UHGV virus genome: UHGV-1333851
DNA: 18,488 nucleotides
Direction: 5' to 3' (one strand)
Source of the DNA: a virus
Both the position numbers and the translations under genes were made by a program. Below, piece after piece: positions 1 to 14,782 of the stretch. Below the pieces are notes generated by a model. The model made no database searches. It saw nothing but the letters and a program-made list of their open reading frames with translations, and was not told where the DNA came from. Position 1 is the first letter of the stretch; the number at the start of each line of letters is the position of its first letter.

Positions 1-550
1 AACAACCAGTGCGTGGGTATATGCAAACAGGTTTTCTATTAATAGTGGTTCAACCTCATGGATTGATATGCGAAACCAAAATGTCATTTTTGGTAAAAAC
101 GCGGTATCAACAAGTTCCGCCCAAGCATTATTAAGACAAGACCATGCTGACAGAAAGTTCTTTATTGGTGGTCTTGGTAATAGCCAATTCGGCTTTTACA
201 TGATTAACAACTCAAGAACCGCAAATGGAACAGATGGTCAAGCATTCCTTGATAGCAGTGGTAACTTCCAGTGTGGTGGGCAAATAGTTCCCGCCAATTA
301 CAGTAATTTTGATTCCAGATATGCACTGAGAACATCTTACGTTTCCAGCGTAAGGATGGGGTCCGTTGCCAGTTATAGCCCACCAAACAACGAAACCTCC
401 TGGACTAAGAACCTTGGTAGCGGACTGGTTATGACAGGGATTATTGTTCAGGAAACAGGAAAAGCTTCTGCCGATAACATCGGTGGTATTTATTATCGGC
501 CAGTTCAATATTGTATCAACGGTACCTGGTATACAGCAGCATCAGTATAA
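1..550 (+). CDS. Tail fibre protein, C-terminal receptor-binding part (5' end outside window; fibre module A)
   Basis: Reading frame open from position 2 to TAA at 548-550 with no stop, so the gene continues upstream. The C-terminus (NYSNFDSRYAL...RPVQYCINGTWYTAASV) is paralogous to the C-terminus of the minus-strand fibre gene at 1684-2781. Followed 14 nt later by a tail fibre assembly gene with a strong SD. Confidence 0.8.
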   Translation, partial: TTSAWVYANRFSINSGSTSWIDMRNQNVIFGKNAVSTSSAQALLRQDHADRKFFIGGLGNSQFGFYMINNSRTANGTDGQAFLDSSGNFQCGGQIVPANYSNFDSRYALRTSYVSSVRMGSVASYSPPNNETSWTKNLGSGLVMTGIIVQETGKASADNIGGIYYRPVQYCINGTWYTAASV

Positions 551-564
551 AAAGGAGGCAGTAT

Positions 565-1080
565 ATGAATAATTTTAAAAACTTCACTTCCTACACGCCG
601 GGAGAAGATAAAAAAGAGCTTATTGATGCTGGAGTTTTATTCCTTCAGGATGAAAACGGTAATGACTGGTATGAATGTCAGAAGTTGTTTTCAGAATCTA
701 CAAGAATAGTTGCATATGATAGTAACGATATAGTTGTCAGCATTACTGATGACGTTTCTACCCTTTGGCCTATAGGATTGTCTGTAGCTGAAGTAGGAAG
801 TTTACCTGAAGATGTAGATATCAACGGTAATTGGGTGTTTAGAAACAACTCAGTTGTTAAACGCATATATTCTGATACAGAATTACAACAGCAAGCTGAA
901 TCAAAAAAGGCAGCCTTGCTTTCACACGCCGAATCAGTAATCGCAACTCTTGAGCGGGCAGTTAAATTGAATATGGCAACTGATGAGGAACGAGAAAAAC
1001 TGGAAGCGTGGGAGCGTTATAGCGTGTTGGTTTATCGTGTAGATACAGCTAAACCAGAATGGCCTGAAGAACCGGAGTGA
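565..1080 (+). CDS. Tail fibre assembly protein (Tfa/U-like)
   Basis: ATG at 565 preceded by AAGGAGG; the ORF-track start at 511 lacks an RBS. The N-terminal ~95 aa are highly similar to the convergent ORF at 1120-1665 (MxNFKxFTSYTP.EDK.EL..AGV.FL.DENGNDWYECQK), as expected for phage Tfa/U proteins. Confidence 0.85.
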   Translation: MNNFKNFTSYTPGEDKKELIDAGVLFLQDENGNDWYECQKLFSESTRIVAYDSNDIVVSITDDVSTLWPIGLSVAEVGSLPEDVDINGNWVFRNNSVVKRIYSDTELQQQAESKKAALLSHAESVIATLERAVKLNMATDEEREKLEAWERYSVLVYRVDTAKPEWPEEPE

Positions 1081-1085
1081 AGTAA

Positions 1086-1112
1086 AGGCCCGATTTATCG
1101 GGCCTATTTCAC
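1086..1112. terminator. Hairpin between convergent tfa genes, putative bidirectional terminator
   Basis: GGCCCGA-TTTA-TCGGGCC stem-loop followed by a T-rich tract (TATTTCACTTT), lying between the convergent 3' ends at 1080 and 1120. Confidence 0.5.
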
Positions 1113-1119
1113 TTTCCTT

Positions 1120-1665
1120 TTAAACTGGCTCAGTAGGCCAGGCGATCGCATTGAAAGTGGCTTTATCTGTTATTGTGTTGAAATCTAATGCATTAACAGC
1201 ATCTATATAGTCCAGCCAGGCGTCAAGAGCTGACTGTTCATCTTCAGATAATATTCTGCCGCGTAGTAATTTTGTCTGGCTAATGACGAGCTGTTGACGT
1301 GCGCTGTTAAGTCGCTCAGTGCGTCTTGATTCCGCCATGTTTTTTAACTCATCTGCGGTTCTTACTCTTTCAACCACATTTTCTCCGTCAAATATCCAGT
1401 TCCCATCAATATCTACTCCATCAGGCAGAGTTTCTATTTCTGCTACAGATGCCCCCACAGGCCAGAGTGTTGAAACATCGTTTGAAATACTCACGACGAT
1501 ATTATCGCTGTCATAAACTATCTTTATCGTATTCTCATGAAAAAATTTCTGACATTCATACCAGTCATTACCGTTTTCATCACGTAAAAATACAACTCCA
1601 GCTTCAACAAGCTCTGACTTATCTTCATCTGGGGTGTAGGATGTGAACTTTTTAAAATTAATCAT
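1120..1665 (-). CDS. Tail fibre assembly protein (Tfa-prime/U-prime-like)
   Basis: Paralog of 565-1080. Start placed at the ATG at 1665 (MINFKKF...), which has GGAG 7 nt upstream; the ORF-track start at 1677 has no RBS. The C-terminal half differs from the plus-strand copy. Confidence 0.85.
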   Translation of the reverse strand: MINFKKFTSYTPDEDKSELVEAGVVFLRDENGNDWYECQKFFHENTIKIVYDSDNIVVSISNDVSTLWPVGASVAEIETLPDGVDIDGNWIFDGENVVERVRTADELKNMAESRRTERLNSARQQLVISQTKLLRGRILSEDEQSALDAWLDYIDAVNALDFNTITDKATFNAIAWPTEPV

Positions 1666-1683
1666 TGTTTGCTCCATTAATAA

Positions 1684-2781
1684 TCATGCTGTGGCTGCTG
1701 TATACCAAGTGCCATTAATGCAATACTGTAAAGGCCTCAATCTTGCTGGGTCGTCACCATCAACTTCACCAATAATCCCAAGCCCTGTAATGACATAGCC
1801 AGCAGTTTCAAACATCGTGCCTTTCTGCATGGTATGAGTTTTATATGCCCCAAGTCTGACGCTGGTCACACAAGCCGTCTTTAATGCGTAACGAGAGTCA
1901 AAATTACTATAATTAGAGGGGGACACCTGACCATTTACAGCAAATGTTATGCTGTTATCAGTATTTCTCTGACTATAAAAATGCCATCCTGAATCATCAC
2001 CTAATTCAGCTACAACAGGACGAGTAGAAGCACCCCATAAATTAAATGTTACGTTCTTTGTGGATGTGTTAGAACTTGATAGTGAAAAAGTTTTACTATC
2101 TCCGGCCAGCAATTTTTTTAAAGAAAAAGCCGCATCATTCTGAAAGCGGAATACTCGCTGACCATTAGCGTAAACATCAAGAATGCCATCACCATTCTGT
2201 TTAAAACCAGTATCATTATCGCCAAGGACGATAGAGTTACCACCAAGAGCATTTGCAGTACCCAGACCAACAGAACCATTAACAGTTAAACCATTACCGA
2301 TTGAAACAGCACCATTGGCGTTGTTAATGGTAAGCGGCCTTAAACTATTCCATGTTCCCAGGCTGTCGCCCGAATTGGTCAACATGAAGTATGTGCTTGA
2401 ACCATCGTTTCGGATAAAGAATCCATAGTCACCCTGTACGATGCGGAAGCCATTTCCTGACTTGGAGACAATCTCACCATCAACCGTTAAACCGCCGGTA
2501 AGAGTTCCTCCGGTTATTGGCAATGCATCAATATCTTGAGGCGTGAGGTTAATGTCTTTTGAACCATCAAACGAAACGGAATTAATCTTTCTCGCGGTTT
2601 TCAGCTTTGTAGCCGTTGAGGCATTGCCGGACAGCTCACCAGAAATGCCACCAACAACTGTTAGATCACCAGTTATTGTGCCGCCTGAACTTTCCAGTTT
2701 TTTAGCAACATCACTCTTAATAGAGTCGATTTCTTTTTTCAGATTAGTTATATCTGCTGGTATCGTTGTCACTGTTGCCAT
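1684..2781 (-). CDS. Tail fibre protein, alternative receptor-binding module B, with its own start codon
   Basis: 365 aa. Contains a phage tail fibre repeat-like motif (NASTATKLKTARKINSVSFDGSKDINLT) and Gly-rich fibre sequence; the C-terminal ~80 aa are paralogous to module A (…RPLQYCINGTWYTAATA). ATG at 2781 has AAGGA 9 nt upstream. Confidence 0.8.
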   Translation of the reverse strand: MATVTTIPADITNLKKEIDSIKSDVAKKLESSGGTITGDLTVVGGISGELSGNASTATKLKTARKINSVSFDGSKDINLTPQDIDALPITGGTLTGGLTVDGEIVSKSGNGFRIVQGDYGFFIRNDGSSTYFMLTNSGDSLGTWNSLRPLTINNANGAVSIGNGLTVNGSVGLGTANALGGNSIVLGDNDTGFKQNGDGILDVYANGQRVFRFQNDAAFSLKKLLAGDSKTFSLSSSNTSTKNVTFNLWGASTRPVVAELGDDSGWHFYSQRNTDNSITFAVNGQVSPSNYSNFDSRYALKTACVTSVRLGAYKTHTMQKGTMFETAGYVITGLGIIGEVDGDDPARLRPLQYCINGTWYTAATA

Positions 2782-2790
2782 ATTAATTCC

Positions 2791-3069
2791 TTACGCCCAT
2801 TCCCGCAGCGGTTGTTCTAATTGAACTTCAAAACCATCAAACATTTGTTGTTTCAAACTGTTGTTTAAAATACGAACATTAACGAAGAAGCCATCATTTT
2901 TAATCACTGTTGGTTCTTCGTTCTCGCCGTTTGGTATTTCGGTATATGTAATACCTACAACATCAAGAAGGATGTTGTTTTGCAGTTCTTCATTATCGTG
3001 CCAGGATATACTCTCTAAAAAAGAGTCGTATTCTTCCCTGTCTCTGAATTTCAACGTAATATCTTTCAT
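2791..3069 (-). CDS. Small protein translationally coupled to the upstream fibre gene; putative fibre chaperone/assembly factor
   Basis: 92 aa. Its ATG overlaps the stop of the 3069-4568 fibre gene (TAATG); its stop lies 9 nt before the start of the next fibre gene. The chaperone role is inferred from position only. Confidence 0.4.
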   Translation of the reverse strand: MKDITLKFRDREEYDSFLESISWHDNEELQNNILLDVVGITYTEIPNGENEEPTVIKNDGFFVNVRILNNSLKQQMFDGFEVQLEQPLREWA

Positions 3070-4568
3070 TAAATAACCTCAGCCATTTGTTGGTCTGTTA
3101 ATGCTTTATGCCATATTCTGAAATTCCTGATATGACCAAATAAATGACGTAACCCTGCTGTAGTCTGGCCTCCAATACGGATGGTTGCAGAGTTCTGAAT
3201 ATAGGACCACGTAGTCTTTTTTTCGCTGGATATGCGCCCGTTACTTACTGAGCACGTAGACTGATCTGATTTTACACGCATCCCCATAACCATTTTTTCA
3301 AGCGATGCGTTTTCGTTTACCCGTCTGTTAGCTCCTCCAATATCGCAATAAGGAAATCCGTCTGGCCCATCTGCCGAAGATCCGAACCCAAGAATAATAG
3401 CCGCTCCGGTTTGATGACCGCTGGTATCAAAAACACGTGGCGCTGCATTTGGCGTTTTATACCAGTTCTTATGTACCTCACAAAGAACCGTAAAAGGAAG
3501 ATTATAAAGATTATTATTAATTGGAACTGTAACTATATCGCTTGCGCGGGTAGCCGCCGTCGTTCCTGAGATAATAAAAGATGATGCACAAGAACCATCC
3601 TCAACTTGAGGGGTAGACAGATAAATATAGTCTCCAGATACGGTTGCTCCGCCCTGCTTAGGAGAATACTGTATCTGAGATCCTATTTTTAACTCATCAT
3701 CAATTGCCTGGATTGTTGCCTCTGCAAAAATCCATCCAGTAGCTTCGTCCTTTCTGACTCTCGCTGTAATCCTTGATGCCGCGCCACCTGTCATATTAAT
3801 TTCAAGCGTTTGTGTATCAATATATGCATCACCAAGAAAAGTTGTTGCACTACCGTCATATTTATCAAAGCGGATACGCAACCTTACCTGTCGTTCTGTT
3901 TTAAAACGACATGAGGTTGTCACGTACTTGTTATCGCCTGAAACATCAACTGACTTTGTAGCAGCAATTGATGCCATATTAATGGCTGATGTTTGCCCAA
4001 TCAGAGAATCGTTACAGACAAACTTTCCATAGGTAAAACCAAAACTATCCGTCCCGGTTTCGGGAACATCCATATTTGACGATCGCCCCCAACTGGCAGG
4101 GTTTTCCGAATTGAGCATGTAGTTTGTTCGTTGTCCCTCAATAAGCAGGCCATCACGTTCAAATCGTGGCTCGTCAATGGCAGCCTCTGTCAGCACACCA
4201 GATTTATTTATATAGGTTGCTTTCGATGCGCGTTTAAACTTAACAACCTTGTCGCCAGGCATTGTTATTTCGTCGTCGCCAATAACAATCTTTTTATATG
4301 ATGGAGAAAAGCCCGCAATCATATCCAGTGAATCATTAAACGGTATCCACACATCTGGCAGCGGTTGAATAATCTTCCTGGCATCCTCCAGTGACAATGC
4401 TTCGACATCCGAGGCTGTTAAAGAAATATCTGCCGAACCGTCAAATGAAACGTTGTTAATCTTCCGCGCTGTTTTCAATTTCGTCGCGGTGTCGGCATTC
4501 CCTGTCAGCGCCCCGGTGATCCCGCCGTTGAAAGTCTGGCGTGCACTCCATGTGTTAGCCGTGCTCAA
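3069..4568 (-). CDS. Tail fibre variable segment C with a C-terminal LamG/concanavalin-like domain; probably expressed only as a fusion after inversion
   Basis: 499 aa from a TTG (ORF-track start) that has no SD. The frame stays open upstream through the crossover site to a stop at 4647-4649. Contains a tail fibre repeat (NADTATKLKTARKINNVSFDGSADISLT). The C-terminus (…LFGHIRNFRIWHKALTDQQMAEVI) resembles the terminal strand motif of LamG-like jelly-roll lectin domains. Confidence 0.7.
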   Translation of the reverse strand: MSTANTWSARQTFNGGITGALTGNADTATKLKTARKINNVSFDGSADISLTASDVEALSLEDARKIIQPLPDVWIPFNDSLDMIAGFSPSYKKIVIGDDEITMPGDKVVKFKRASKATYINKSGVLTEAAIDEPRFERDGLLIEGQRTNYMLNSENPASWGRSSNMDVPETGTDSFGFTYGKFVCNDSLIGQTSAINMASIAATKSVDVSGDNKYVTTSCRFKTERQVRLRIRFDKYDGSATTFLGDAYIDTQTLEINMTGGAASRITARVRKDEATGWIFAEATIQAIDDELKIGSQIQYSPKQGGATVSGDYIYLSTPQVEDGSCASSFIISGTTAATRASDIVTVPINNNLYNLPFTVLCEVHKNWYKTPNAAPRVFDTSGHQTGAAIILGFGSSADGPDGFPYCDIGGANRRVNENASLEKMVMGMRVKSDQSTCSVSNGRISSEKKTTWSYIQNSATIRIGGQTTAGLRHLFGHIRNFRIWHKALTDQQMAEVI

Positions 4569-4598
4569 CAGGGGGATCTTTTCACCGCTGGTACCGAG

Positions 4599-4624
4599 TT
4601 CTCTTAAACCAAGGTTTAGGATTG
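4599..4624. other. Site-specific inversion crossover site (hix/gix/cix-like)
   Basis: TTCTCTTAAACC-AA-GGTTTAGGATTG: two 12-bp imperfect inverted half-sites around a 2-bp core, matching the Hin/Gin/Cin family architecture (TTnTCnnAAACC NN GGTTTnnGAnAA). It is the only canonical AAACC-NN-GGTTT found in the window. Confidence 0.75.
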
Positions 4625-5176
4625 AAATGATGACGCCGGAAACTTCTTATAAAGCGTGGAAACAGCCACATCATAGATGATTGCAACCTGCTTACGGGGG
4701 ATACCCTTCTCCAGCAATCGCCGCATTTGCTGCCATGTTTCTTCTTGGTATTTAGGCCGACGCCCACCTATACGACCTTCTGCGCGAGCTGCATCAAGTC
4801 CAGCGCGTGTACGTTCAACGATAAGCTCACGTTCCATTTCTGCCAGCGCACCCATTACGTGAAAGAAAAAGCGCCCCATTGGTGTACTGGTGTCGATGGA
4901 GTCAGTGAGACTCCGGAAGTTAATGCCTCTGTCACGCAGCTCTTCCACCAGCACAACTAAGTGACGCATGCTGCGCCCAAGACGGTCTAACTTCCATACG
5001 ACCAGGGTATCACCTCTGGAAAGCATACGGAGTACCTTTTTTAACCCAGGGCGCTCAGCCTTTTTGCCGCTCGCCTTGTCCTCAAAAATTAGCTCACATC
5101 CTGCGCTTTCAAGAGCGTTTCGTTGTAAAGCAGTGTTTTGTTCATTTGTTGATACACGTACATAGCCTATTAGCAT
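4616..5176 (-). CDS. cin: DNA invertase, small serine recombinase of the Hin/Gin/Cin/Pin family
   Basis: 186 aa. MLIGYVRVSTNEQ…GDTLVVWKLDRLGRS…GRFFFHVMGALAEMERELIVERT…STLYKKFP matches the resolvase/invertase catalytic domain (catalytic Ser in VRVST) and the C-terminal HTH. ATG at 5176. The stop codon lies inside the crossover site. Confidence 0.95.
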   Translation of the reverse strand: MLIGYVRVSTNEQNTALQRNALESAGCELIFEDKASGKKAERPGLKKVLRMLSRGDTLVVWKLDRLGRSMRHLVVLVEELRDRGINFRSLTDSIDTSTPMGRFFFHVMGALAEMERELIVERTRAGLDAARAEGRIGGRRPKYQEETWQQMRRLLEKGIPRKQVAIIYDVAVSTLYKKFPASSFQS

Positions 5177-5302
5177 ATTTTCTGCTCACTATCGTTATTT
5201 ATAGCAAGCTGCGGATTTTAATTAACAAAACCAGTGTGTGTGGAAATCACAAAGTACATACCGTTTCCCAATGATGTTTATTTAACCATTAAGGAAATAG
5301 TT

Positions 5303-5584
5303 ATGTTTGATCTAAAAATCATTTTCATATCCATCTTTGGCGGAGTGCATTCGTTTCTGAATGGGGTTCGTGAAAAACGTTACGAAGCATCATGCAGGCA
5401 ATTGCTGGCCGAGTGTCTTGCTGCCGTACTTGCAGGCTTTATAGGCATGTGTTTCGCGGAATATAAGGGTATGGATGAAAGTCTTCAGAATTGCGTGACT
5501 CTTATTTGCAGCATCAATAACAGGCTCATTCTTGAAAGGTTACAAAGGCTTATCGATTCGTACCTCAATAGAAATGCCTCTTAA
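5303..5584 (+). CDS. Small membrane protein, holin-like (possibly LydC-like)
   Basis: Start placed at the ATG at 5303 (AAGGAAA 7 nt upstream) rather than the ORF-track start at 5234. Two hydrophobic segments (IIFISIFGGVHSFL, LAAVLAGFIGMCFA). First gene downstream of the invertase on the opposite strand. Confidence 0.4.
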   Translation: MFDLKIIFISIFGGVHSFLNGVREKRYEASCRQLLAECLAAVLAGFIGMCFAEYKGMDESLQNCVTLICSINNRLILERLQRLIDSYLNRNAS

Positions 5585-5604
5585 GCAACAAATGACCGGT
5601 TGAG

Positions 5605-5625
5605 AAGTTACTTTGCATACCATTA
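5605..5625 (+). promoter_or_regulatory. Candidate late-type promoter upstream of lydA-like gene
   Basis: GTTACTTTGCATACCAT: a TTTGCAT element abutting a TANNNT hexamer (TACCAT). The same arrangement occurs upstream of lyz. Possibly a late-activator-dependent promoter. Confidence 0.25.
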
Positions 5626-5651
5626 CCTCCTGACAACGTAGGAGGGAACTT

Positions 5652-5981
5652 GTGCTTGACACACAGGAATTAGCTCCAGTTGCTATTGCGCTCCTGCTTT
5701 CAGTAATTGGTGGGATAGGCACGTTCCTGATGGATGTCCGAGATGGTCGCCAGTCTGGCAATTTGTTGGGATTGGTTACGGAGATCTTTGTTGCAGTGAC
5801 AGCTGGCGCGGTGGCGTACCTATTGGGGCAACACGAAGGCTGGGAGTTATCAATTACGTACTTAATGGTAACGATAGCCAGCAATAACGGTCATGAGGTG
5901 ATTTCAGGGATGAAACGAGTGAATATCGATAGCATTCTGAATGTTCTTACAAGTTTGGTGAAAAAGGGAGGTGGGAAATGA
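5652..5981 (+). CDS. lydA: Holin-like membrane protein (LydA-like)
   Basis: 109 aa. GTG start at 5652 with GGAGGG just upstream. Two or three predicted TM segments (VAIALLLSVIGGIGTFL, IFVAVTAGAVAYLL). Lies immediately upstream of the Hdf/DarA-like genes, as lydA does in P1 by my recollection. Confidence 0.55.
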   Translation: MLDTQELAPVAIALLLSVIGGIGTFLMDVRDGRQSGNLLGLVTEIFVAVTAGAVAYLLGQHEGWELSITYLMVTIASNNGHEVISGMKRVNIDSILNVLTSLVKKGGGK

Positions 5982-6421
5982 TTGGCTGGGGTGTATGCGT
6001 TCTTGCGTTAGCCTTAGCCGATCGCTATTTGCTAAAACGCAAGGACATCACGCATTTAGAACTTGGTGATGTGGAAATTAAACAGGGCTTCATCCGGGTG
6101 CCGTTCAAATACCGGTCTAAATTCCCGTTTTTGCGCGGCGCAACGGTCAGATATTGGATCCGCGATGTTCAGAAGCCAACGACAGTGATTGAAGGCGAAC
6201 AACGTTGTCTGACGTCGGCTGAACAGGGCGAAAACAGTGAATGGTTGTACATACCCACTGAATATATGGGTAAAGGAGAGCGACTGTGGCATTTCAACGT
6301 CATGGTTACGCATGGCGACTCGTTCATTAACCCGTTGTATCGGATTTTCCCTGTTACTCAGAAAATCCGCAGAAGTTACGTAATAAATCTCGCACAGGAT
6401 GTGTCAGATGACGAAAAATAA
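5978..6421 (+). CDS. lydB: LydB-like protein (putative holin antagonist/lysis regulator)
   Basis: 147 aa. ATGA start/stop overlap with the preceding gene and a strong SD (GGGAGGTG). N-terminal hydrophobic segment. Assignment rests on position and size only. Confidence 0.45.
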   Translation: MIGWGVCVLALALADRYLLKRKDITHLELGDVEIKQGFIRVPFKYRSKFPFLRGATVRYWIRDVQKPTTVIEGEQRCLTSAEQGENSEWLYIPTEYMGKGERLWHFNVMVTHGDSFINPLYRIFPVTQKIRRSYVINLAQDVSDDEK

Positions 6422-7010
6422 GTATGCAACGGTCGATTTTGACCAGGTTAATGAAAAGGGGCTGAAATCCCTTATCGCGGCGATCAATAAAACCGGTGTT
6501 ACGGTAATTGAGGTTGACTCCAGCAACCGCGCAACAACGAAAGATGGCGTTAAAGTTAAAACCGCAAAGCTGGTTCTTAACGACGGACAAATTCTTGCCA
6601 TACAGGTAAACGATACTGGCGATATATCGTCTGTGAAACTGAATGGAAAAGCTATTCCTAACGCTCAGTCGCCGGATATCAAGACGCTTGGTACCGTCAT
6701 GGGACAGGCGGCCCGCAAAAACTCCGCAAAATTCCAGAAATCACTGATCGCCAAAGCGAAGCGTGTTGCCAATCCGGTAGACAAGAAACCGGCAGTTAAA
6801 TCCAACTTTCAGCGCCTGCAAGAAGCAAAACAGCGGAATGCTCAGGTGGTTGCCGCTTATAAGTCCGCGCAGAATTCGGTGTCTTTCAATCAACAGCAGA
6901 TCACTGATTTGCGGGCGAAGCTGGATAAGGAGACGGGCCGACTCAATAACGAAAAGGCACGGAATGGCGAACTTAAACGTCGTCTTAAGCAACTGAAAGC
7001 AGGAAATTAA
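6408..7010 (+). CDS. hdf: Hdf-like protein (paralog of a DarA fragment)
   Basis: Start at the ATG at 6408 (AGGA 9 nt upstream). Shares a region with the next, larger gene (L.DGQ…NSAKFQ.…K). C-terminal coiled-coil-like K/R/E-rich tail. Confidence 0.55.
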   Translation: MTKNKYATVDFDQVNEKGLKSLIAAINKTGVTVIEVDSSNRATTKDGVKVKTAKLVLNDGQILAIQVNDTGDISSVKLNGKAIPNAQSPDIKTLGTVMGQAARKNSAKFQKSLIAKAKRVANPVDKKPAVKSNFQRLQEAKQRNAQVVAAYKSAQNSVSFNQQQITDLRAKLDKETGRLNNEKARNGELKRRLKQLKAGN

Positions 7011-7011
7011 C

Positions 7012-8931
7012 ATGGAACAGTTCAATATCAATAAAGGGGTGACGATCAAGCCTGGGCTTGACGTGCTTCCCCCGCCAGTGACTGATGATGAATATCGCGC
7101 ATTAATGGCCGGTGAGGACCGCTATCTGATGACGGAATCCAACACCCTGGAGGAAATCGAGGCTACGTTCTTCTATGACACGCCGATCCACTGGTGTGCT
7201 ACGGATTTACTGGAGGCGATTAGTTCTACTCGTTTGCAGTTACACCGGACCATGCAGGCATTTGTCCGGGCATTGAACCAGAAGCTGAATGGTACCGGAA
7301 TCTCTGCGGGGAGTGATAAAACGGGGGATGTGGCCCAGAGCGGCGCGCGCGCGATCGGCGGCGCTGAAATTGGTCGGGCACGTAACGTTAACGGGCTGCC
7401 GGTCCTGCCAGCCATTATTCCGCTCAGTGATGGTCAGACTATCAGCATTTTGTTTCATAGCCCGACAGCGGAAAACCGGATCACCAATAGCGATACGCTG
7501 GTTGCTTTCCAGTTCTTACTGAATAAAAAAGACGTTACTCACACCGTTGCTCCGATGAGTGGACGTGATATGACGCTGGCGCAGGTCACCATGAAACTTG
7601 CCAACCTTGCAGAGAAAAACTCGGCAAAATTCCAGCGTGCGCAGAAGAAGAAAAAAGCCCTGGTTGATGAAATAACCCAACTACAGGCTGACAGTGACCA
7701 GAAAGAGGATGCCATGAGCGACCTCGCGGATCAGGTGGCAGCGGTAGAAGGCCAGAAGGCAGATCTGGAGCAGAAAATTAACGCGGTTGCTTCGGAAGCG
7801 GATTCTCTTTATCAAGAAAATGAGCGTTTGCAGGCGGAGATTGATCAGCTCAATCGCACTGGTGGGCGCGATACCATTGCTCCAGCGGGGATGACTGGTG
7901 GGCACTCTCGCGCGCTGACGGATCGCCTTGCCAGTATCAAAAATCGTATGCATATGGACGGGGAAGCGACGCTCAGTAATGGTGCATCAATGAAGCAATT
8001 CATTGGGGATGGCGAAGGGTATATCCAGTTAACCGATCCGGATGGCAGCGTATACATGATCAAGGCTAAATCCATACAGGGTGTGGACATGGCAGAAGCG
8101 ATCGGCAAGCTGTTTAAAGCCTATAAAGCGGGTAATGTATCGGAATATCTGGTCCAACCAGAAGAACATAAACCGGAAAACGTCGAACCTGAACCAGCGG
8201 AGGATACCGGTAGCTCTTCGCCTGAACCAGAAGTCTCTGTAGGTGCATATCGATATGCCCTGCAAATGCGTCCGGCGGCCCCTGGCGCAATACCTGAAGG
8301 TAACAAAGCGATTCTGCCGCGCCCTGATGAAGGTGACCCGTATTATGAATATGCACGCTACGGCATTGCTACTTACGATACCCCGCTTTCTGATCAGCAA
8401 ATGAGTGAGTACGACCTGAAGTTATTGCCTCGCGAGGATTCTTTCGACTTCCTGGCGAAGACACTTACTAATGGTCCGTTTGGCAAATATGCACAAAAAG
8501 CTCTGGAGCTGGCCACCAGCTCACCAGACGAGTTCCGCGTAATGCTGAAAACTCAGTTTCAAAAAACTTTCCCCAATATTGCGTTTCCTGGGGGCACTGG
8601 CACCGAGAAAATGGTGCAGAGCATGATCAATGCATTGCAGGCCGAAGTCGGTGAGATTACTCAGCCAGAACCGGCCCCGGCACAGCCTGATGAAACGGTT
8701 AGCGAAGCAGATGCAGAGGCTAATAAAGCCATTGAATATCTCAATAACGTGATGGATATGCAAAGCACTGACATGGCGGAGATCCGTAACGCCCGGGGTA
8801 ATGTCCGGGAAGCTATTGCAGCCCTTCAGGCTGCCGGGCGTTTTGAGGAAAACGAAGAGCTGGTTAATGGCGCAGCTCGCCACCTGGCTGATCTGCTGGT
8901 AGCAATCCAGAAAGCGGGGGTAGCGGCATGA
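7012..8931 (+). CDS. darA: DarA-like head-internal antirestriction / head morphogenesis protein
   Basis: 639 aa with an internal coiled-coil segment (QLQADSDQKEDAMSDLADQVAAVEGQKADLEQKINAV…). Paralogous to the preceding Hdf-like gene. Size and operon position match P1 DarA by recollection; not verified. Confidence 0.55.
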   Translation: MEQFNINKGVTIKPGLDVLPPPVTDDEYRALMAGEDRYLMTESNTLEEIEATFFYDTPIHWCATDLLEAISSTRLQLHRTMQAFVRALNQKLNGTGISAGSDKTGDVAQSGARAIGGAEIGRARNVNGLPVLPAIIPLSDGQTISILFHSPTAENRITNSDTLVAFQFLLNKKDVTHTVAPMSGRDMTLAQVTMKLANLAEKNSAKFQRAQKKKKALVDEITQLQADSDQKEDAMSDLADQVAAVEGQKADLEQKINAVASEADSLYQENERLQAEIDQLNRTGGRDTIAPAGMTGGHSRALTDRLASIKNRMHMDGEATLSNGASMKQFIGDGEGYIQLTDPDGSVYMIKAKSIQGVDMAEAIGKLFKAYKAGNVSEYLVQPEEHKPENVEPEPAEDTGSSSPEPEVSVGAYRYALQMRPAAPGAIPEGNKAILPRPDEGDPYYEYARYGIATYDTPLSDQQMSEYDLKLLPREDSFDFLAKTLTNGPFGKYAQKALELATSSPDEFRVMLKTQFQKTFPNIAFPGGTGTEKMVQSMINALQAEVGEITQPEPAPAQPDETVSEADAEANKAIEYLNNVMDMQSTDMAEIRNARGNVREAIAALQAAGRFEENEELVNGAARHLADLLVAIQKAGVAA

Positions 8932-9293
8932 CACTATCAGCTATTGAGTTAATGGACCTCAGCGATAAGTTGGATGCTCTGATGTCCAAAGCGGCTACCG
9001 CGAGTGGCATGGAGTTGCTGGATATCAGCGATGAAATTGACCAGATCATGCAACAGATGGGGTACGGCGCGTCTGGCGGCGGTAGTGGCGAGGAGAAACA
9101 ACCTTCGGAACATGATGGTGTGCCAAAACTGGTTGCTGATTTCCTGGCTGATAAATTCGTCGATCAGAGCACTGATGCATTTATCGGTACGTTACAGGAC
9201 TTGAGTCAATATGTTGGCACATACATCGACCTGGACCAGGTTAAACAGCACACGGCGGCATGGATAGCCGCCAACATTAAAGAGGCAGCATAA
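8928..9293 (+). CDS. ddrA: DdrA-like small acidic protein
   Basis: 121 aa. ATGA overlap with the darA-like stop. Positional analog of P1 ddrA. Confidence 0.4.
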   Translation: MTLSAIELMDLSDKLDALMSKAATASGMELLDISDEIDQIMQQMGYGASGGGSGEEKQPSEHDGVPKLVADFLADKFVDQSTDAFIGTLQDLSQYVGTYIDLDQVKQHTAAWIAANIKEAA

Positions 9294-9305
9294 GGCGTAA
9301 CAGGG

Positions 9306-12293
9306 ATGAGCTTAAGCGATCAGGTGGTAATGGCCACCAGCATAGAAACGCTGATCGAGCTGCTAAAGAACCTGCCCGATTATGGGCGGGTTTCGTATGT
9401 GGTGACAGCGAAGGGAGACGAGGTAAAAACAGCGTTTGATATCGTCGATGCCTCAGCTCTTTTGGTATCCAATACTCTGGATGGGAAAATTAATCCTGAC
9501 TATCCCCAGGAACTTCAACCGCGCGACCGGACCCGCGCATCCAGCCTTCTTCAGGTTAACCAGATATCCAAAGATTTGCGGCCTGCTCAGCTTACCGACT
9601 CCGGTTTATCCAGCCATGGCGCGCCGATAATTGGTGAGGACAATGCCGTTGAGTCAGGTAATGGGCGGACCATGGGGATCATTAAAGCCTATCAGGACGG
9701 TAATGCGGATCGGTATCGGGAGTACCTGATTGAACATGCGACCGAATTCGGCATACGGCCTGAAAAGGTTGAATCAATGACGGCTCCGGTACTGGTGCGC
9801 CGCCGGTTAACGAAGGTTGACCGTGTTCAGTTTGCCAAGGACTCAAATATTTCTGATCTCCAGGAAATGGCAGCCAGTGAAAAGGCTTTTGTTGATGCCG
9901 ACAGCATAACTCCGGCGATGATGGCGCTTTTTAACCCGTCAGAAAGCGGAGATCTGCTTAGCCGCAGTAATGACGCGTTTATTCGCGGATTTATGACGCA
10001 AGTTGGTGCCACACAGGCGGCTGGCCTTGTAACTGAAGATGGGCGACCAACACGGCAACTTGTAGACCGTATACAAAACGCGATCTTTGCCAAGGCATAT
10101 AAGGATGCGCGCCTGGTAAGGATGGTTGCAGAAGAACCTGATCCGGATATGCGTAATGTTCTGACGGCGCTTAATGCGGCAGCCAATGATTTTGTCCAGA
10201 TGCAGGCTTTATCAGGAGAAGCGCACAAGCAGGCTGTGACAACTATTGTTGATGGCATTGAGACAGCGGATAGCCTCGATAAAAAGGCGCTGGCAGCATT
10301 GAAAGATGCGGTAGACCTGGTAAGGCAATCGAAGGAGTCAGGCCAGCATATTACCGATGTTATTGCTCAGGGGGATATGTTCAGCGAAACGGCCCCGGAA
10401 GTGAAAGCACTCGCGTTGTTCATCGTCGCGAATAACCGTAGCGCGAAGCGTATGGCCACCGCCTTTAAGTTGATGGCTCAACGTATCAATGATGAGTTAC
10501 AGCACCAGGGCCAGGCGCTGGGGGATATGTTTGGCGGCGGCGATGTGTCGTTACAGGATATCCTTCGCCAGGTGTCTCAGGAACTGGAAAACGAAGGCAT
10601 GCAAGGGATATCCGGCGGTCTTTTCGAGTCCGTTTCCGGCGGTAGTTACAACGGTGTTGCTCCGTATACCAGTTTGCTATTACATCGGGCATCCGGCATC
10701 AAAGACATTATTCATCTGATCAGGCTGCTTTCCCGCACAGATCCCCAGGATGAACAGCTTGTACAAGTGCTTGCGCATTTTGTTCGAATGCCTGTTGCCG
10801 ACGTGAAAAAATGGTGCCGATTATTCGGTATCAGCAATTCGTTACTTCGCGGCTTGTTAAATCACGCATCCTCCCTTGGGCGCGATGGCTTTGACGAGAT
10901 AGCGCAGGCGATAAAAAACGGAGATATGCCACCAGCTATTGACTGGTTTTCCATTCGCCCAACCAGGGTGAAAGCATTCCTTAGCGCGGCGCATTCGGCA
11001 TCACCATTGGCAGAAATGGTTCAGAGGTTGTCGCTCATATTCACAGACCATAGCGCGTTGGGTGATCTGACTCTGGACGAGATGAAAGAAGCCTCCATTC
11101 AGTGGGCCGATCAACAAAATGAGGTTAACTCAGACTTCTTGCCAGCATTCAGGAAGGCCGTTAGTAAAGTGGATGATGCCCGTGGAATTCTGAAGGCATT
11201 TAAGGCATTGCAAAGTCGGGTTAATAAACATGTCGGTGATATCGATGGGGTAACGGCGGAAGGCAGGGATATCCTTAAAGAGCACGGCATAACGCCAGAG
11301 TTTATTGATGAGATCAGGACGGATATGCAGCGTGAGGTCGTATCGTCCCTGCAAATCGTAGCCAGAGCGTTGGCGGATGCTAATCCGAAGAGTGCGGCCA
11401 TTGTTAACCGGGTTATTGGTGATATTGAAGCATCGGAGGGCATGGGGGCGCTGAAACTCTTCCTTTCGCGAGCGTTTAATCCTAACGGCAATATTCTCCC
11501 CAGCATTATTGGTGAGGCTAAAAAGCATGTCAGTGAAGAAGAACTTGAGCAGCTTAACCAGCTACTCAATCGATTTTCATATATCCCGCAGAAACGCTGG
11601 CAAATGAATCAGCGTAGTATGGATTCGGTCTACGAGAAAGTGTTATCTGCCATGAACAGTGCGATCGCCAACTCATCCGTATCAGAAGAAAAAGCTCTTG
11701 AGTGGGCCGACTCTTTTATCACGGAAGAAGTGGAAGAAGCCCGCGCTGGACAGAATGGTGGAATAGACCTGCGCAAGGAACTTGCTGATATTTATCGCCT
11801 GACCGGCGGGAAAATATCAACCTTATCAAGGGTAATTCACCACAAGGGTAGGGCGTATGCAAATCTTAATGGTGTTGTTGCTGTCGATTTGCACGATGAA
11901 AATGCAAATGCACTGTGGCACGAGCTGGGTCATCATCTTGAGTACAGTAACCCGGGTTTGTTAGAGAAAGCCAGGTCATTCCTGAAGGCCAATGTTGAAG
12001 GGGATAAGCCATCTTTCGTTAATATTGGTGGGCGTGGCAAGCCTGAATGGTGCTTCAGATCTCGATTGAGTGATATTTATATGGCGAAGGTATACCCGCC
12101 TGTCTCAGTGAGTAATTCTGGTAAATTTCGACACAAATCTCCGACAATTTCCAAAACGTCAGCAACGGAAGTATTCTCTATGGCTCTTCAGTTGTATCAT
12201 GACAAAGAGGCCGCTGCCGCATCACTGATGAATGGTGACGGATTGCTGGAACTGTTATTAGGTGTGGCAAAGGAGCTAAATAATGCAGATTAA
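9306..12293 (+). CDS. ddrB: DdrB-like large virion-associated multidomain protein with a zincin HExxH motif
   Basis: 995 aa. HExxH motif near the C-terminus (ALWHELGHHLEYSNPG). N-terminal region has a possible ParB/Srx-like signature (ESGNGRTMG), unverified. Last large gene of the Dar-like operon. Confidence 0.5.
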   Translation: MSLSDQVVMATSIETLIELLKNLPDYGRVSYVVTAKGDEVKTAFDIVDASALLVSNTLDGKINPDYPQELQPRDRTRASSLLQVNQISKDLRPAQLTDSGLSSHGAPIIGEDNAVESGNGRTMGIIKAYQDGNADRYREYLIEHATEFGIRPEKVESMTAPVLVRRRLTKVDRVQFAKDSNISDLQEMAASEKAFVDADSITPAMMALFNPSESGDLLSRSNDAFIRGFMTQVGATQAAGLVTEDGRPTRQLVDRIQNAIFAKAYKDARLVRMVAEEPDPDMRNVLTALNAAANDFVQMQALSGEAHKQAVTTIVDGIETADSLDKKALAALKDAVDLVRQSKESGQHITDVIAQGDMFSETAPEVKALALFIVANNRSAKRMATAFKLMAQRINDELQHQGQALGDMFGGGDVSLQDILRQVSQELENEGMQGISGGLFESVSGGSYNGVAPYTSLLLHRASGIKDIIHLIRLLSRTDPQDEQLVQVLAHFVRMPVADVKKWCRLFGISNSLLRGLLNHASSLGRDGFDEIAQAIKNGDMPPAIDWFSIRPTRVKAFLSAAHSASPLAEMVQRLSLIFTDHSALGDLTLDEMKEASIQWADQQNEVNSDFLPAFRKAVSKVDDARGILKAFKALQSRVNKHVGDIDGVTAEGRDILKEHGITPEFIDEIRTDMQREVVSSLQIVARALADANPKSAAIVNRVIGDIEASEGMGALKLFLSRAFNPNGNILPSIIGEAKKHVSEEELEQLNQLLNRFSYIPQKRWQMNQRSMDSVYEKVLSAMNSAIANSSVSEEKALEWADSFITEEVEEARAGQNGGIDLRKELADIYRLTGGKISTLSRVIHHKGRAYANLNGVVAVDLHDENANALWHELGHHLEYSNPGLLEKARSFLKANVEGDKPSFVNIGGRGKPEWCFRSRLSDIYMAKVYPPVSVSNSGKFRHKSPTISKTSATEVFSMALQLYHDKEAAAASLMNGDGLLELLLGVAKELNNAD

Positions 12294-12594
12294 AATCGCA
12301 GCGCCATTAGGCGGAGATGCCATTATCGAATTTGATGATAATGAAGAAGTTTCCGGGCGTTTAAGCATTATCTCCGGTGACATTACCGAGGACATGATCG
12401 CTGAAGCCATAGCTGGGGCAAATCCCAATAGCTATATGGGATTCGTTAACACCCTTGATGCTCCCGCAAGTGATGTTCTCCGAACGCTGCATCTTTACGC
12501 TGGCTGGTTTGTTGATTGGCCAGTAGTAGATGGTGGCGATGAGGACGACGACGACGATGATTTTGGTGATCATGTAGACCAGATCGTATATTGA
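12283..12594 (+). CDS. Small highly acidic protein with a poly-Asp tract
   Basis: 103 aa. Start overlaps the ddrB-like stop (ATGCAGATTAA). C-terminal DGGDEDDDDDDFGDHVDQIVY. Followed directly by a strong terminator. Confidence 0.5.
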   Translation: MQIKIAAPLGGDAIIEFDDNEEVSGRLSIISGDITEDMIAEAIAGANPNSYMGFVNTLDAPASDVLRTLHLYAGWFVDWPVVDGGDEDDDDDDFGDHVDQIVY

Positions 12595-12596
12595 AG

Positions 12597-12628
12597 AAAT
12601 CCCGCCAATCGGCGGGATTTTTTTTAAT
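12597..12628. terminator. Rho-independent terminator, bidirectional between convergent operons
   Basis: AAATCCCGCC-AATC-GGCGGGATTT, a perfect 10-bp stem, followed by a T run. Sits between the plus-strand stop at 12594 and the minus-strand stop at 12624. Confidence 0.75.
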
Positions 12629-13412
12629 CGCTTTCCACTTCTTCCGTGGTGTTTTCTTGCAGTTCTGTTAATGCAGCACGACATAGGTTCCGGGCATTGG
12701 CTATAGCCACACTTTTGACTTCATCCGTCATCGTGCAGGTAATGTACTGATCGAGTTCTTCAGCGCGGATGATGCTTTTGCCAATCAGAAACTGTATTTG
12801 CCAGAGCAGATCGGCATCCATAATCAGAATTTCTGCCGGGCCTTCAGGGCCAGCCGGGAAGGAAACATAAGACTGTTTGCCCAGGCCGATAACTCGACAA
12901 CTTGCTTCAAGAATTGCGCGCTTGAGGTCTGACTTTGTAACGGAAACAGGTTGGTTTTCACCAGTGATTATGCCGTTGACATGGAAGTGGAAGGGCATGT
13001 AGCTTGAAATACGCTCTACTTTCCACACGCCAGCAAGCGATCCTTCATGCAGCACAATGGGGGTAACCGCGAGTTTCATCTCACCATATAACTGCTGGCA
13101 GATAGCTGGATTGCTGAATACATCCAAAGGTTCACACTCAAACAGCGGCGCAATCTGCATGAGGTCCATCATGGTCATACCAGGGGTACGAGCAGTAATG
13201 AATCTGCGCATGCCAGTATCCATTGTGCGCCAGATAGCTACACCATGCTTTTTGCTCACTTCTTCAGTAAAGCCAAGGTGGCACATGATGGTTTTTTCGA
13301 TAGCCAGATCAGAGATCGAAACCTTTTCGCCAGGCACACCATCATTATTGATGGTCACTTCGACACTCTGACCATTACGCAGGCGGTATTGAATTGCTTT
13401 AGTATTTTCCAC
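12624..13412 (-). CDS. Hypothetical protein, function unknown
   Basis: 262 aa. GTG start at 13412 with GGAGTG 8 nt upstream; start lies 7 nt after the stop of the preceding gene. No motif I can assign. Confidence 0.55.
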   Translation of the reverse strand: MENTKAIQYRLRNGQSVEVTINNDGVPGEKVSISDLAIEKTIMCHLGFTEEVSKKHGVAIWRTMDTGMRRFITARTPGMTMMDLMQIAPLFECEPLDVFSNPAICQQLYGEMKLAVTPIVLHEGSLAGVWKVERISSYMPFHFHVNGIITGENQPVSVTKSDLKRAILEASCRVIGLGKQSYVSFPAGPEGPAEILIMDADLLWQIQFLIGKSIIRAEELDQYITCTMTDEVKSVAIANARNLCRAALTELQENTTEEVESD

Positions 13413-13418
13413 GTTAAA

Positions 13419-14096
13419 TCACTCCACTACAAACCAGTCACATGCCAGTAAGTCGCCTACAGAAGGAACCCACGGAACAACTACACCTTGTGCATTTTTT
13501 AAGGCGAAATAAGCACCATACGGAACGAGGTCGCCGGGGAAATATCCCTTAATGGCTTCCATTCGTGCCGGGTACTGTCCTTCAGGAACCAGCCAGCAGA
13601 ATTGGTTTTCGCCGTTCCACCCGCGTCGAGCAACTTTCTTGCCATCCTTCAGCCACATCAGCGCGTCAGAAAAGTCGGCTGCTTCAAGGTCGATTTCTTC
13701 TTGTAGAGTAGCGATACCGCCAGCAGAAATAGTTACGTCCCTGGCTGTAATGAATGTCACCCCATTGTGACCTTCAATGCTGAGCAATGCCCCATTTTCG
13801 AAGAAGTCGTTAGTCCGACTAAAGCCTTCTTCAAATGTTTTTTCTGGTGAATAGGACAGAGATCCGTCCTCATAAGCGACCAGATATCCGCCAATTTCTG
13901 GTCGGTGTTTTTGCAAAAACATTTTATCAACATGGACTTTTACCCCTTCTGGCTCAACGACTTCGATGTTGCAAAGAAGGACCACATCCATTAGGGCGAT
14001 AATTTCGATATCTTTGATTTTTGAGGCACGAACTGTTTTATGGCTTTTGTATTTTGGAAGTGCCGTCAAAAGCTCTTTCGTTGTCATGTTATTCAT
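13419..14096 (-). CDS. Two-domain protein with a C-terminal DUF2829 (Tad2-like) domain
   Basis: Start placed at the ATG at 14096 (AGAGGAAA 5 nt upstream), not the ORF-track GTG at 14264, whose extension is R/K-rich and lacks an RBS. The C-terminal ~85 aa (FSDALMWLKDGKKVARRGWNGENQFCWLVP…PWVPSVGDLLACDWFVVE) match the DUF2829 signature as I remember it. Confidence 0.6.
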   Translation of the reverse strand: MNNMTTKELLTALPKYKSHKTVRASKIKDIEIIALMDVVLLCNIEVVEPEGVKVHVDKMFLQKHRPEIGGYLVAYEDGSLSYSPEKTFEEGFSRTNDFFENGALLSIEGHNGVTFITARDVTISAGGIATLQEEIDLEAADFSDALMWLKDGKKVARRGWNGENQFCWLVPEGQYPARMEAIKGYFPGDLVPYGAYFALKNAQGVVVPWVPSVGDLLACDWFVVE

Positions 14097-14293
14097 AGTC
14101 TTTCCTCTGCTTAAAACCTGATGTATTGCGCCTTCAGGTGGGGCAGGATTGTTTTCCCACCAGCGAAAGCAATATCTCGGGGTGTTCTTTTCGTGAAAAG
14201 CGCGTGCCATTGCCAACTTTGGCGTTTGTTTGCGAGTTCGTGCTTTTGTCGGCGTCTGGACCACCGCTTTTCTTTCAGTCGTTTTTTACACAT

Positions 14294-14782
14294 TCAAAAC
14301 GGAATATCGTCGTCAAAGTCCATTGGAGGCTCGTTATTGGCGTTGCTCTGAGGTTTACCGCCACCACTGTATTGCTGGTGGTTTTGAGGTTGGTTTGATT
14401 GCCCCCAGCCATTTGAGGACTGTGAATCGTCACGGCGAGCGCCGATCATTTGCATGGTGCCGCCCTGGCTGACGATAATTTCCGTCGTGTAACGTTCTAC
14501 ACCGGCGTCATCTGTCCACTTACGGGTTTTAAGTTTCCCTTCGATGTATACCTGAGAACCTTTTCGTAAATACTCACTCGCAATTTCAGCAAGTTTTCCG
14601 AACAAAACGACTTTATGCCATTCTGTTTGCTCTTTCTGTTGGCCCGTTTGCTTGTCGCGCCATGATTCATTCGTTGCGATGCTGAGTCTTCCGACCGCGC
14701 CGCCATTTGGTATATACCTGATCTCCGGGTCTTGCCCCAAGGTACCAATCAGTATGACTTTGTTTACACCGCGTTGTGCCAC
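14294..14782 (-). CDS. ssb: Single-stranded DNA-binding protein
   Basis: 162 aa. Near-identical in organisation to E. coli SSB: OB-fold ([23 protein letters not shown]…[29 protein letters not shown]), Gly/Gln-rich linker and acidic tip [14 protein letters not shown] start with AGGTAAG upstream. Confidence 0.97.

Follow-up and report, generated by a model that had tools for sequence, protein, structure and literature searches.

What does the tail fibre region of this viral genome exchange when it inverts, and what does its silent end contribute? The DNA analysed here, a stretch of 18,488 nucleotides (UHGV-1333851, hereafter the window), carries three fibre-like modules beside an invertase gene. 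A first-pass annotation of the letters alone proposed that these modules, A, B and C, are interchangeable, and that one switch may alternate between a Tfa-assisted tip, as in A and B, and a lectin-like tip, as in C, possibly to address protein versus glycan receptors.

A two-site Cin switch in a P1-like phage-plasmid

The window derives from a P1-like phage-plasmid whose C segment is inverted by Cin, and module C makes up the silent arm of this segment. The serine DNA invertase gene cin (4616-5176, minus strand) encodes Resolvase and HTH_7 domains and shares 99.2% nucleotide identity with P1 cin. On the cin side of the segment, a cix site identical to P1 cixL occupies positions 4600-4621, with its core AAACCAAGGTTT at 4606-4617 and the crossover near 4611/4612, and forms the right-hand boundary of the invertible DNA. 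Scanning with a tolerance of at most 3 mismatches in the core and at most 7 in the 28-mer returned this one site for the window; no further cix-like sequence was detected in window positions 1-5300 or in the complete relative L014, and none lies between or inside B and C. The partner site is located off-window, beyond the left edge, where the constant part of the fibre gene, Sc, meets the variable part; the complete relatives L014 and L001/L013 contain it. Complete relatives hold exactly two cix sites, the outer halves of which are swapped between the plasmids pCFSAN058545_02 and U2501, and the collinearity of U2501 with the window breaks at 4600-4621. Three hallmarks of a Cin-type switch are at hand, namely an adjacent serine invertase, two inverted crossover sites (one inside the fibre gene) and both orientations of the segment. 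The window and pCFSAN058545_02 represent Sc::A, and U2501 represents Sc::C with reciprocal junctions, these being separate isolates and not members of one population.

Arm A consists of the 3' end of the currently expressed variable part of S (Sv; 1-550, plus strand; PHROG 454), which is truncated by the left window edge and whose equivalent in pCFSAN058545_02 is part of a full S coding sequence. It is followed by a U-like Tfa gene serving tip A (511-1080, plus strand; Caudo_TAP, E 2e-29), the annotated homologue of which in U2501 corresponds to window positions 565-1080. This arm is the classical one of P1, the flanking backbone matches P1 at ~98% identity, and with cin 99% identical and cix identical, both systems exchange the C-terminus of the S fibre by inversion between two sites. 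The second arm differs: in P1 it is composed of Sv' and U', whereas here it holds a LamG-type tip, a small protein termed orf92, an independent second fibre and a Tfa, and the C segment measures 4.2 kb in P1 compared with ~6.1 kb in the complete relative pCFSAN058545_02.

Module C (3069-4568, minus strand; PHROG 1419 'tail protein', E 6e-236) is an alternative, Sv-type variable C-terminus of the S tail fibre. The open reading frame is present as first described, with 499 amino acids counted from the first TTG and the C-terminal end ...FGHIRNFRIWHKALTDQQMAEVI. Upstream of the TTG at 4568 the frame stays open to the cix crossover near 4611 (...LGLRELGTSGEKIPLLSTANTW...), and in plasmid U2501 the Sc::C fusion is a coding sequence of 966 amino acids. 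The fusion in U2501, together with the opposite orientation of the window and pCFSAN058545_02, confirms that the S fibre has module C as a genuine alternative end. That it might instead be a decaying, non-functional remnant gained by recombination is hardly credible: the module is promoterless and silent in the window's orientation, lacks an annotation in pCFSAN058545_02 and occurs in few P1-like plasmids (~7 of the 605 records that match, judged by us from record size and replicon), but its 499 codons are intact and continuous through cix, copies of 99% identity are expressed as Sc fusions, and every family-invariant residue is kept. We found no description of the module in P1-like elements in the literature searched, nor in the paper on Gifsy-1 Stf.

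A four-gene cassette in the silent arm

Downstream of module C, its stop codon overlaps the start of orf92 (2791-3069, minus strand) in a TAATG, so that the two genes are translationally coupled. The earlier pairing of module C with a small protein other than a Tfa holds, as orf92 displays neither a Caudo_TAP match nor a Tfa-like fold; its predicted fold is otherwise uninformative. Nine nucleotides past the orf92 stop, module B (1684-2781, minus strand) starts with its own AAGGA Shine-Dalgarno sequence and ATG. It encodes a second fibre protein of 365 amino acids with a Gp34_trimer Pfam match and the tip ...QYCINGTWYTAATA, and in U2501 it is annotated as a stand-alone coding sequence. The adjoining U'-like gene (1120-1677, minus strand; Caudo_TAP, E 5e-21; PHROG 136) encodes the tail fibre assembly protein, Tfa, that serves B. 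In agreement with the first-pass annotation, the tips of A and B share a Tfa-dependent end (...QYCINGTWYTAA; 45% identity over ~100 amino acids), which the LamG-like jelly-roll end of module C does not resemble.

The N-terminal peptide of B-type second fibres, M-T-T-IP-DI--LK, is invariant in 8 elements. Besides B, its carriers are the 'second fibre' genes located after orf92 homologues in other phages; T1-like phages have similar N-termini. The order fibre, orf92, second fibre is found again in lambdoid, T5-like, Seuratvirus and P2-like elements as well as in chromosomal prophages. A P2-like phage-plasmid of 48 kb has C-orf92-B-Tfa as a single block, and the part of it that was examined bears no invertase annotation. 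B is hence an independently translated second fibre that belongs to one cassette with C, orf92 and a Tfa. Its position directly downstream, its own start and its conserved N-terminal peptide are those of a branched-fibre gene.

These observations bear on the idea of a multi-site shufflon in which Sc can be fused to any of three alternative tips, A, B and C. The Min system of plasmid p15B is a precedent for multiple inversions, three fibre-like reading frames reside within one invertible region, and B and C have the shaft motif TATKLKTARKIN in common. A shufflon of this kind has more than two crossover sites, a number that neither window positions 1-5300 nor L014 reaches. With one cix in the window and exactly two in complete relatives, with no cix-like sequence between or inside B and C, with a ribosome-binding site and ATG of its own for B, and with the block in the 48-kb plasmid lacking an annotated invertase over the part examined, we rejected the three-tip reading, which retains next to no probability. 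The number of cix sites, the separate start of B and the existence of the cassette without an annotated invertase in that part together indicate a switch with two sites and two states, A plus Tfa versus the set of C, orf92, B and Tfa. The proposed alternation between a Tfa-assisted and a lectin-like tip is accordingly only half right: the lectin-like arm is real, but the second state contains both types of tip. On inversion, a set of two fibres, which may be branched, probably takes the place of the single tip.

Outside P1-like elements, coliphage fibres that combine PHROG 1419 with a following PHROG 1361 are found in phage 21 (Stf), Tritos, PhiR46_1, IrisVonRoten/Bas32, SP15, SA126VB, nomo and lambdoid prophages. 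Their C-terminal module shares 27-94% amino-acid identity with module C, an orf92 homologue follows directly, and the next gene usually encodes a second fibre bearing that N-terminal peptide of B. In contrast to the situation in the window, the module has a fixed place on siphovirus or other fibres, outside the control of an invertase, and the second fibre usually matures by its own Peptidase_S74 domain instead of a separate Tfa. Module C is a new example of a known and widespread E. coli phage module, and its assignment to the LamG fold is routine; the useful part is the corrected architecture of a four-gene cassette in a two-state switch. P1 serves widely as a vector for transduction and delivery, and resistance genes are spread by P1-like phage-plasmids. 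If the C segment swaps a single tip for a lectin-plus-fibre set, host range would be widened by importing a whole siphovirus/P2-like fibre cassette, and such a composite cassette would be a ready-made modular part to retarget P1 particles.

Tandem jelly rolls at the C-terminus of module C

Residues 1-60 of module C (4389-4568, minus strand) form a fibre-shaft segment with the motif TATKLKTARKINxVSFDGSxDIxLT, which is also found in module B. The segment yields short matches to many tail-fibre PHROGs and has low pLDDT in the monomer model. The neck that follows (residues 61-140; 4149-4388, minus strand) is the most conserved part of the family, with invariant alignment columns in PLPDVWIPFNDSL...RASxATYINKxG...PRFExxGLLIEGQRTN; the identity of homologues is 39-78% in the neck but falls to 18-40% in the jelly rolls, so that the distal domains are more variable than the neck. 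As a monomer the neck is poorly modelled, with pLDDT below 50 at residues 80-96 and 102-134. At E<=0.001 the module matches 2293 representative clusters, and it is always located at the extreme C-terminus, after unrelated N-termini. In NCBI records, homologues are named 'LamG-like jellyroll fold' or 'phage head spike fiber domain' proteins.

The LamG/concanavalin-like domain had been placed at residues ~300-499 as a single unit. Its fold was called correctly, although the region extends over residues ~140-499 and comprises two jelly rolls. The first one (residues 142-342; 3543-4145, minus strand; pLDDT ~77-94) is a 'GTA head spike fibre' domain, which matches positions 1-181 of the 182-position NCBIfam profile NF048003 (GTA_spike_fiber) at E 1.3e-14 and 55.2 bits, above the curated cut-off of 36 bits. 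The second (residues 346-499; 3072-3533, minus strand; pLDDT ~69-92) is LamG-like, of the Laminin_G_3 type, and bears the motif FGHIRNFRIWHKALTDQQM at residues 477-495 (3084-3140). Module C itself matches Laminin_G_3 (PF13385) below the gathering cut-off of 27.6 bits, with 17.9 bits and E 0.0035 for residues 444-494 on profile positions 99-149 of 151. Among its aligned homologues, however, 35 of 80 match PF13385 at E<=0.01 (best 2e-8, 34.9 bits), and three of the eight that were scanned individually exceed the cut-off (P0121 with 34.9 bits, P0157 and P0239). These matches fall on module C residues 362/388-496, and the sequence comparison thus supports Laminin_G_3 membership of module C by transitive homology. 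The LamG-type motif is not a chance resemblance either, as its H, R, W, L and Q are invariant in 10 phage homologues that are 27-92% identical.

Structure prediction agrees with the profile evidence. The AlphaFold model, computed for a monomer of what is presumably a trimeric fibre, is confident over residues 140-499 and visualizes a jelly-roll beta-sandwich that can be superposed on LG, pentraxin or CBM domains. Foldseek matched it to tandem laminin LG4-5, neurexin L2-L3, CRP, CBM40 and the binding domains of BoNT; as the fold output gives no query ranges, matches were assigned to jelly roll 1 or 2 by means of the Pfam and NCBIfam mapping. Identity to members of the LamG/ConA-like superfamily (Laminin_G_3, CBM40, pentraxins, laminin and neurexin LG domains, BoNT Hc) is just 8-18%, and module C differs from them in that it revealed no conserved site for Ca2+ or sugar, nor was a ligand identified. 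Alternatively, the ConA-like head might be catalytic, a glucanase or depolymerase that degrades surface polysaccharide in the manner of a tailspike. We regard this as very unlikely and rejected the glucanase reading on the grounds that the GH16-type ExDxxE motif is absent from module C and that all higher-scoring fold matches are non-catalytic binding modules (CBM40, AbnA domain 4, pentraxins, LG domains, BoNT Hc); in addition, Pfam and NCBIfam scans matched no glycoside hydrolase or lyase family.

The only characterized sequence homologue of module C is the head spike fibre of the gene transfer agent RcGTA, Rcc01080 (NF048003; PDB 6TB9 chain), which aligns with residues ~111-357 (E 3.7e-6 for the single sequence), including the C-terminal part of the neck; with the family profile of module C, the match to Rcc01080 (6tb9_F3) reaches E 2.4e-26. 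This chain was also the sole significant hit in a direct PDB sequence search, but only its residues 2-10 are resolved, and consequently there is no experimental template for the module C domain. Rcc01080 (325 amino acids) is a flexible, beta-rich, lectin-like protein that binds capsular polysaccharide (PMC7296036, PMC10218006). Unlike module C it is a single subunit on capsid pentamers and not a tail-fibre end, and no counterpart of the LamG-like domain was detected in the alignment over 111-357.

Receptor binding and a possible branched fibre

The suggestion that the two states address protein versus glycan receptors is not supported; the P1 S and S' fibres, both of the Tfa type, reportedly bind O-antigen and the core sugars of LPS (PMC13172314, citing Huan et al. 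2022). Glycan binding by the module C head is favoured indirectly by the capsule-binding RcGTA homologue, by the constant location of the module at the extreme C-terminus and by the variability of its distal domains. It is also in line with the host range of IrisVonRoten: the first fibre of this phage bears a module 65% identical to module C, and no other T5-like BASEL phage infects K-12 in which the O16 antigen has been restored (PMC8594841). The O16 phenotype of this phage might stem from its second fibre.

Cin acts on the cix site at 4600-4621 and on the off-window cix at the Sc/variable junction. In the present orientation Sc is fused to tip A, followed by Tfa; inversion joins Sc in frame to module C, which comprises a short shaft, the conserved neck and a tandem of ConA-like jelly rolls (142-342 and ~346-499). 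The switch probably toggles between the single tip A and a composite of C plus B, not among three tips. The jelly rolls may constitute a non-enzymatic binding head for surface polysaccharide, such as O-antigen, capsule or a similar glycan, and probably need no Tfa. The same transcript would then yield orf92, the second fibre B and the Tfa of B, with the translationally coupled orf92 as a putative accessory, chaperone or adaptor protein. The conserved N-terminal peptide of B is a likely handle for docking onto the C-type fibre or onto orf92, and gene order together with this peptide suggests that virions in the C state would bear a branched fibre with two tips. Taken as a whole, the model of a two-site switch, a tandem jelly-roll, glycan-binding C head, co-expressed orf92, B and Tfa, and a likely branched fibre appears to us likely to be correct.

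The jelly-roll head could alternatively act mainly as a structural hub that anchors B in the manner of E217 gp45 and Pa193 gp46, leaving receptor binding to the Tfa-dependent tip of B. Among phage proteins, these two are the best structural and profile match of module C (E 2.5e-5 with the family profile), and gp45 of E217 uses an attachment loop to anchor the tail fibre, the trimeric N-terminus of which it holds (PMC10329688). A second fibre with the conserved N-terminal peptide usually comes after the module, and the neck, residues 61-140, is at once its most conserved and its least confidently modelled part. Nevertheless, the E217 and Pa193 proteins are baseplate subunits ('triplex' or wedge 2) and not fibre tips, their homology to module C is confined to the jelly roll, and the loop that E217 uses for attachment is not part of the homologous region (PMC10329688). 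RcGTA, too, has the conserved neck motif, and its homologue, a terminal fibre to which nothing else is attached, binds polysaccharide (PMC7296036, PMC10218006). The jelly rolls diverge fast, as expected of receptor-binding domains, and phage 21 and nomo carry the module without an adjacent second fibre. We thus judge a mainly structural hub unlikely and retain the glycan-binding head as the preferred reading.

For the fibre as a whole, the closest architectural parallel is LtfA/LtfB of the T5-like phages DT57C and DT571/2, likewise two consecutive fibre genes, both with receptor-binding ends; according to the available text of these reports, the LtfB-type second fibre has no virion-attachment homology, and its conserved N-terminal peptide is proposed to dock on the first fibre (PMC4728585, PMC10713586). 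As described there, DT57C LtfA ends in an autocleavable S74 chaperone domain and not in a LamG-like domain as in module C; we therefore rejected it as a direct homologue and treat it as an analogue only. The same text describes no orf92 equivalent, and the comparison with B is one of architecture. By extension, and more tentatively than the overall model, since we consider it possible rather than probable, inversion might exchange the simple Sc::A fibre for a branched fibre of dual specificity, in which a chaperone-independent, tandem-lectin C carries the Tfa-matured B, docked directly or via orf92. Under this extension, orf92 (PHROG 1361) would be an unrecognized adaptor or assembly factor across lambdoid, T1-like, T5-like, Seuratvirus, P2-like and P1-like phages. 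Phages 21 and nomo have kept orf92 along with the module in the absence of an adjacent second fibre, which indicates that orf92 is not strictly tied to B. PHROG 1361 is an uncharacterized family of small proteins that accompanies the module across many groups of coliphages, and its role is directly testable.

The Cin switch and its two states

The window belongs to a P1-like phage-plasmid. Positions 5200-18488 (lydC/A/B, hdf, darA, ddrA, ddrB, prt and others) are ordinary P1 backbone, ~98% identical to P1 and SJ46, in which nothing unusual was seen. The invertase gene cin (4616-5176, minus strand; 186 aa with Resolvase and HTH_7 domains; 99.2% DNA identity to P1 cin) is followed on the same strand by module C (3069-4568, 499 aa), orf92, which encodes a small non-Tfa protein (2791-3069), module B (1684-2781, 365 aa) and a gene for a tail fibre assembly protein, Tfa (1120-1677). 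The plus strand carries a second Tfa gene (511-1080), opposite in strand to the first, and fibre tip A, of which the 3′ end (to position 550) falls inside the window and the rest lies beyond its left edge.

A single cix-like site, that is, a crossover site of Cin, occurs in the window, between cin and module C (4600-4621); it is identical in sequence to P1 cixL, and the module C reading frame stays open across it. Plasmid U2501 is collinear with window positions 4-4622, but past the site it has Sc, the constant part of the S fibre, instead; it carries an Sc::C coding sequence of 966 aa, and its cin adjoins arm A. The Salmonella plasmid pCFSAN058545_02, in the same orientation as the window, has exactly two cix sites and an Sc::A fusion. 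The inner half-sites are identical and the outer half-sites remain with their flanks, a pattern as expected for simple inversion. Together, the Sc::C coding sequence and the two-site inversion anatomy show that module C is a genuine alternative terminus of the S fibre and can be expressed.

The first-pass annotation had envisaged A, B and C as three interchangeable tips. This is incorrect for B: a site scan of the window and a complete relative found no cix-like sequence between B and C, and B has its own start, an ATG 9 nt past the orf92 stop preceded by an AAGGA Shine-Dalgarno sequence (2782-2790 region). The orf92 start in turn overlaps the module C stop (TAATG). Within a cassette that also holds C, orf92 and Tfa, B stands as a gene of its own and forms no switchable Sc fusion.

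Two jelly rolls in module C

Module C had been proposed to end in a LamG/concanavalin-like domain recognizable by HMM search. On its own, the module C sequence falls short in that search: its sole Pfam match, Laminin_G_3, arises from the C-terminal stretch (residues 444-494 against profile positions 99-149 of 151; E 0.0035) and scores 17.9 bits, below the cut-off of 27.6 bits. The assignment is nevertheless sound and the proposed fold correct. Module C terminates in GLRHLFGHIRNFRIWHKALTDQQMAEVI; across 10 phage homologues (27-92% identical), the motif positions H, R, W, L and Q never vary. PF13385 is matched by 35 of 80 aligned homologues at E<=0.01 (best 2e-8, 34.9 bits) and by 7 of 8 homologues scanned singly, 3 of them above the cut-off; all seven of these matches lie at the extreme C-terminus, and the homologues' matches correspond to module C residues 362/388-496. 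In some sources, homologues of this kind are listed as 'LamG-like jellyroll fold domain-containing protein'. An AlphaFold2 model built from an 80-sequence alignment is all-beta over residues 140-499 (pLDDT 75-94), and Foldseek matched it in the PDB to tandem laminin LG4-5, neurexin L2-L3, C-reactive protein, CBM40 and botulinum toxin binding domains.

The tandem LG pairs align with module C across >400 alignment columns, which fits two consecutive ConA-like jelly rolls (~141-345 and ~346-499) rather than one. Residues 142-342 match NCBIfam NF048003, 'GTA_spike_fiber', with 55.2 bits (cut-off 36 bits). The RcGTA head spike fibre chain is matched by the single module C sequence (E 3.7e-6) and by the family profile (E 2.4e-26), which also matches Pa193 gp46/E217 gp45 (E 2.5e-5).

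The most conserved segment of the family is the neck, residues 61-140 (4149-4388, minus strand), with 39-78% identity across the family versus 18-40% in the jelly rolls; RcGTA shares part of its motif. In the monomer model the neck has pLDDT <50, and its folding may require a trimer or a binding partner, for example orf92 or the second fibre.

A recurring fibre-orf92-second fibre cassette

Second-fibre genes of unrelated phages encode the N-terminal peptide of B, MATVTTIPADITNLK, in conserved form, and the pattern of its first 15 residues, M-T-T-IP-DI--LK, is invariant in genes after orf92 homologues (Tritos, PhiR46_1, IrisVonRoten, SP15, SA126VB, a 48-kb P2-like phage-plasmid and pCFSAN058545_02). 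Beyond these residues the second-fibre proteins differ. Peptidase_S74-type fibre genes of many T1-like phages begin with similar N-termini. In pCFSAN058545_02, which shares 99.6% DNA identity with the window across module C, orf92 and B residues 1-60, the second fibre (4102-5082) has 326 aa versus 365 aa in B (1684-2781), suggesting that B keeps a fixed N-terminal handle while its distal part is exchanged.

The order module-bearing fibre, orf92, second fibre recurs across several phage groups: lambdoid prophages (J-Lom-Stf-orf93-S74 fibre, orf93 being the orf92 homologue), T5-like phages and one Seuratvirus, and the 48-kb P2-like plasmid, where a Tfa gene follows and no invertase is annotated within the stretch examined around the cassette. 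The virions bearing it have little else in common. The conserved peptide of B would most plausibly serve to attach the second fibre to orf92 or to the first fibre. Such docking would follow the logic of the branched-fibre arrangement proposed for DT57C LtfA/LtfB (PMC4728585, PMC10713586). Which of the two fibres orf92 partners appears ambiguous: phage 21 and nomo have orf92 after the module and no adjacent second fibre, whereas between Tritos and PhiR46_1 orf93 and the second-fibre N-termini are near-identical and the first-fibre heads very different.

In phage 21 (4093-6302), Stf-orf92 is followed by genes for a small membrane protein and the sitBCD iron/manganese transporter, with no second fibre; this stretch looks like cargo inserted at the relatives' second-fibre position. 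The fibre locus of Tritos is lambda-like (J and 'lambda stf homolog'), and a PinR-type recombinase gene (485-1075) lies beside its cassette (1303-5342).

Receptor recognition and distribution

The top fold matches of module C are non-catalytic carbohydrate- or ligand-binding modules, and a search of the module for a GH16-type motif found none. Capsular polysaccharide is the ligand of the one sequence homologue that has been characterized, the RcGTA head spike fibre (PMC7296036, PMC10218006). The module, for which 2293 representative clusters give matches at E<=0.001 (465 at E<=1e-10), is always C-terminal, after unrelated N-termini, and its jelly rolls diverge faster than the neck. A 65%-identical module is carried by the first fibre of IrisVonRoten, the only T5-like BASEL phage infecting K-12 with restored O16 antigen (PMC8594841); this phenotype could also stem from its second fibre. 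Putative glycan recognition is thus the best-supported reading. The suggestion that the switch alternates between protein and glycan receptors finds no support. In P1, where S and S′ are each of the Tfa type, these fibres reportedly bind LPS core and O-antigen (PMC13172314).

Databases already have names for this widespread domain family. The block from C through orf92 to the start of B shares 96-98% DNA identity with 48-kb P2-like phage-plasmids, and the module C head is 93% identical in lambdoid phages such as Tritos and HannyBb. The module is present in 28 plasmid records (full-length in 11). As judged from record sizes and replicons, P1-like carriers make up only ~7 of the 605 plasmid records matching window 1-5300. 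The module and whole two-fibre cassette in the P1 C segment are an uncommon variant, of which we found no description in the literature searched. Three records whose labels name Campylobacter phages (C13/C12) or a Listeria phage (LM 4-11-1) carry this E. coli-phage module at 45-89% amino-acid identity (80% DNA identity for C13); they are probably mislabelled or contaminated rather than evidence of true cross-genus sharing.
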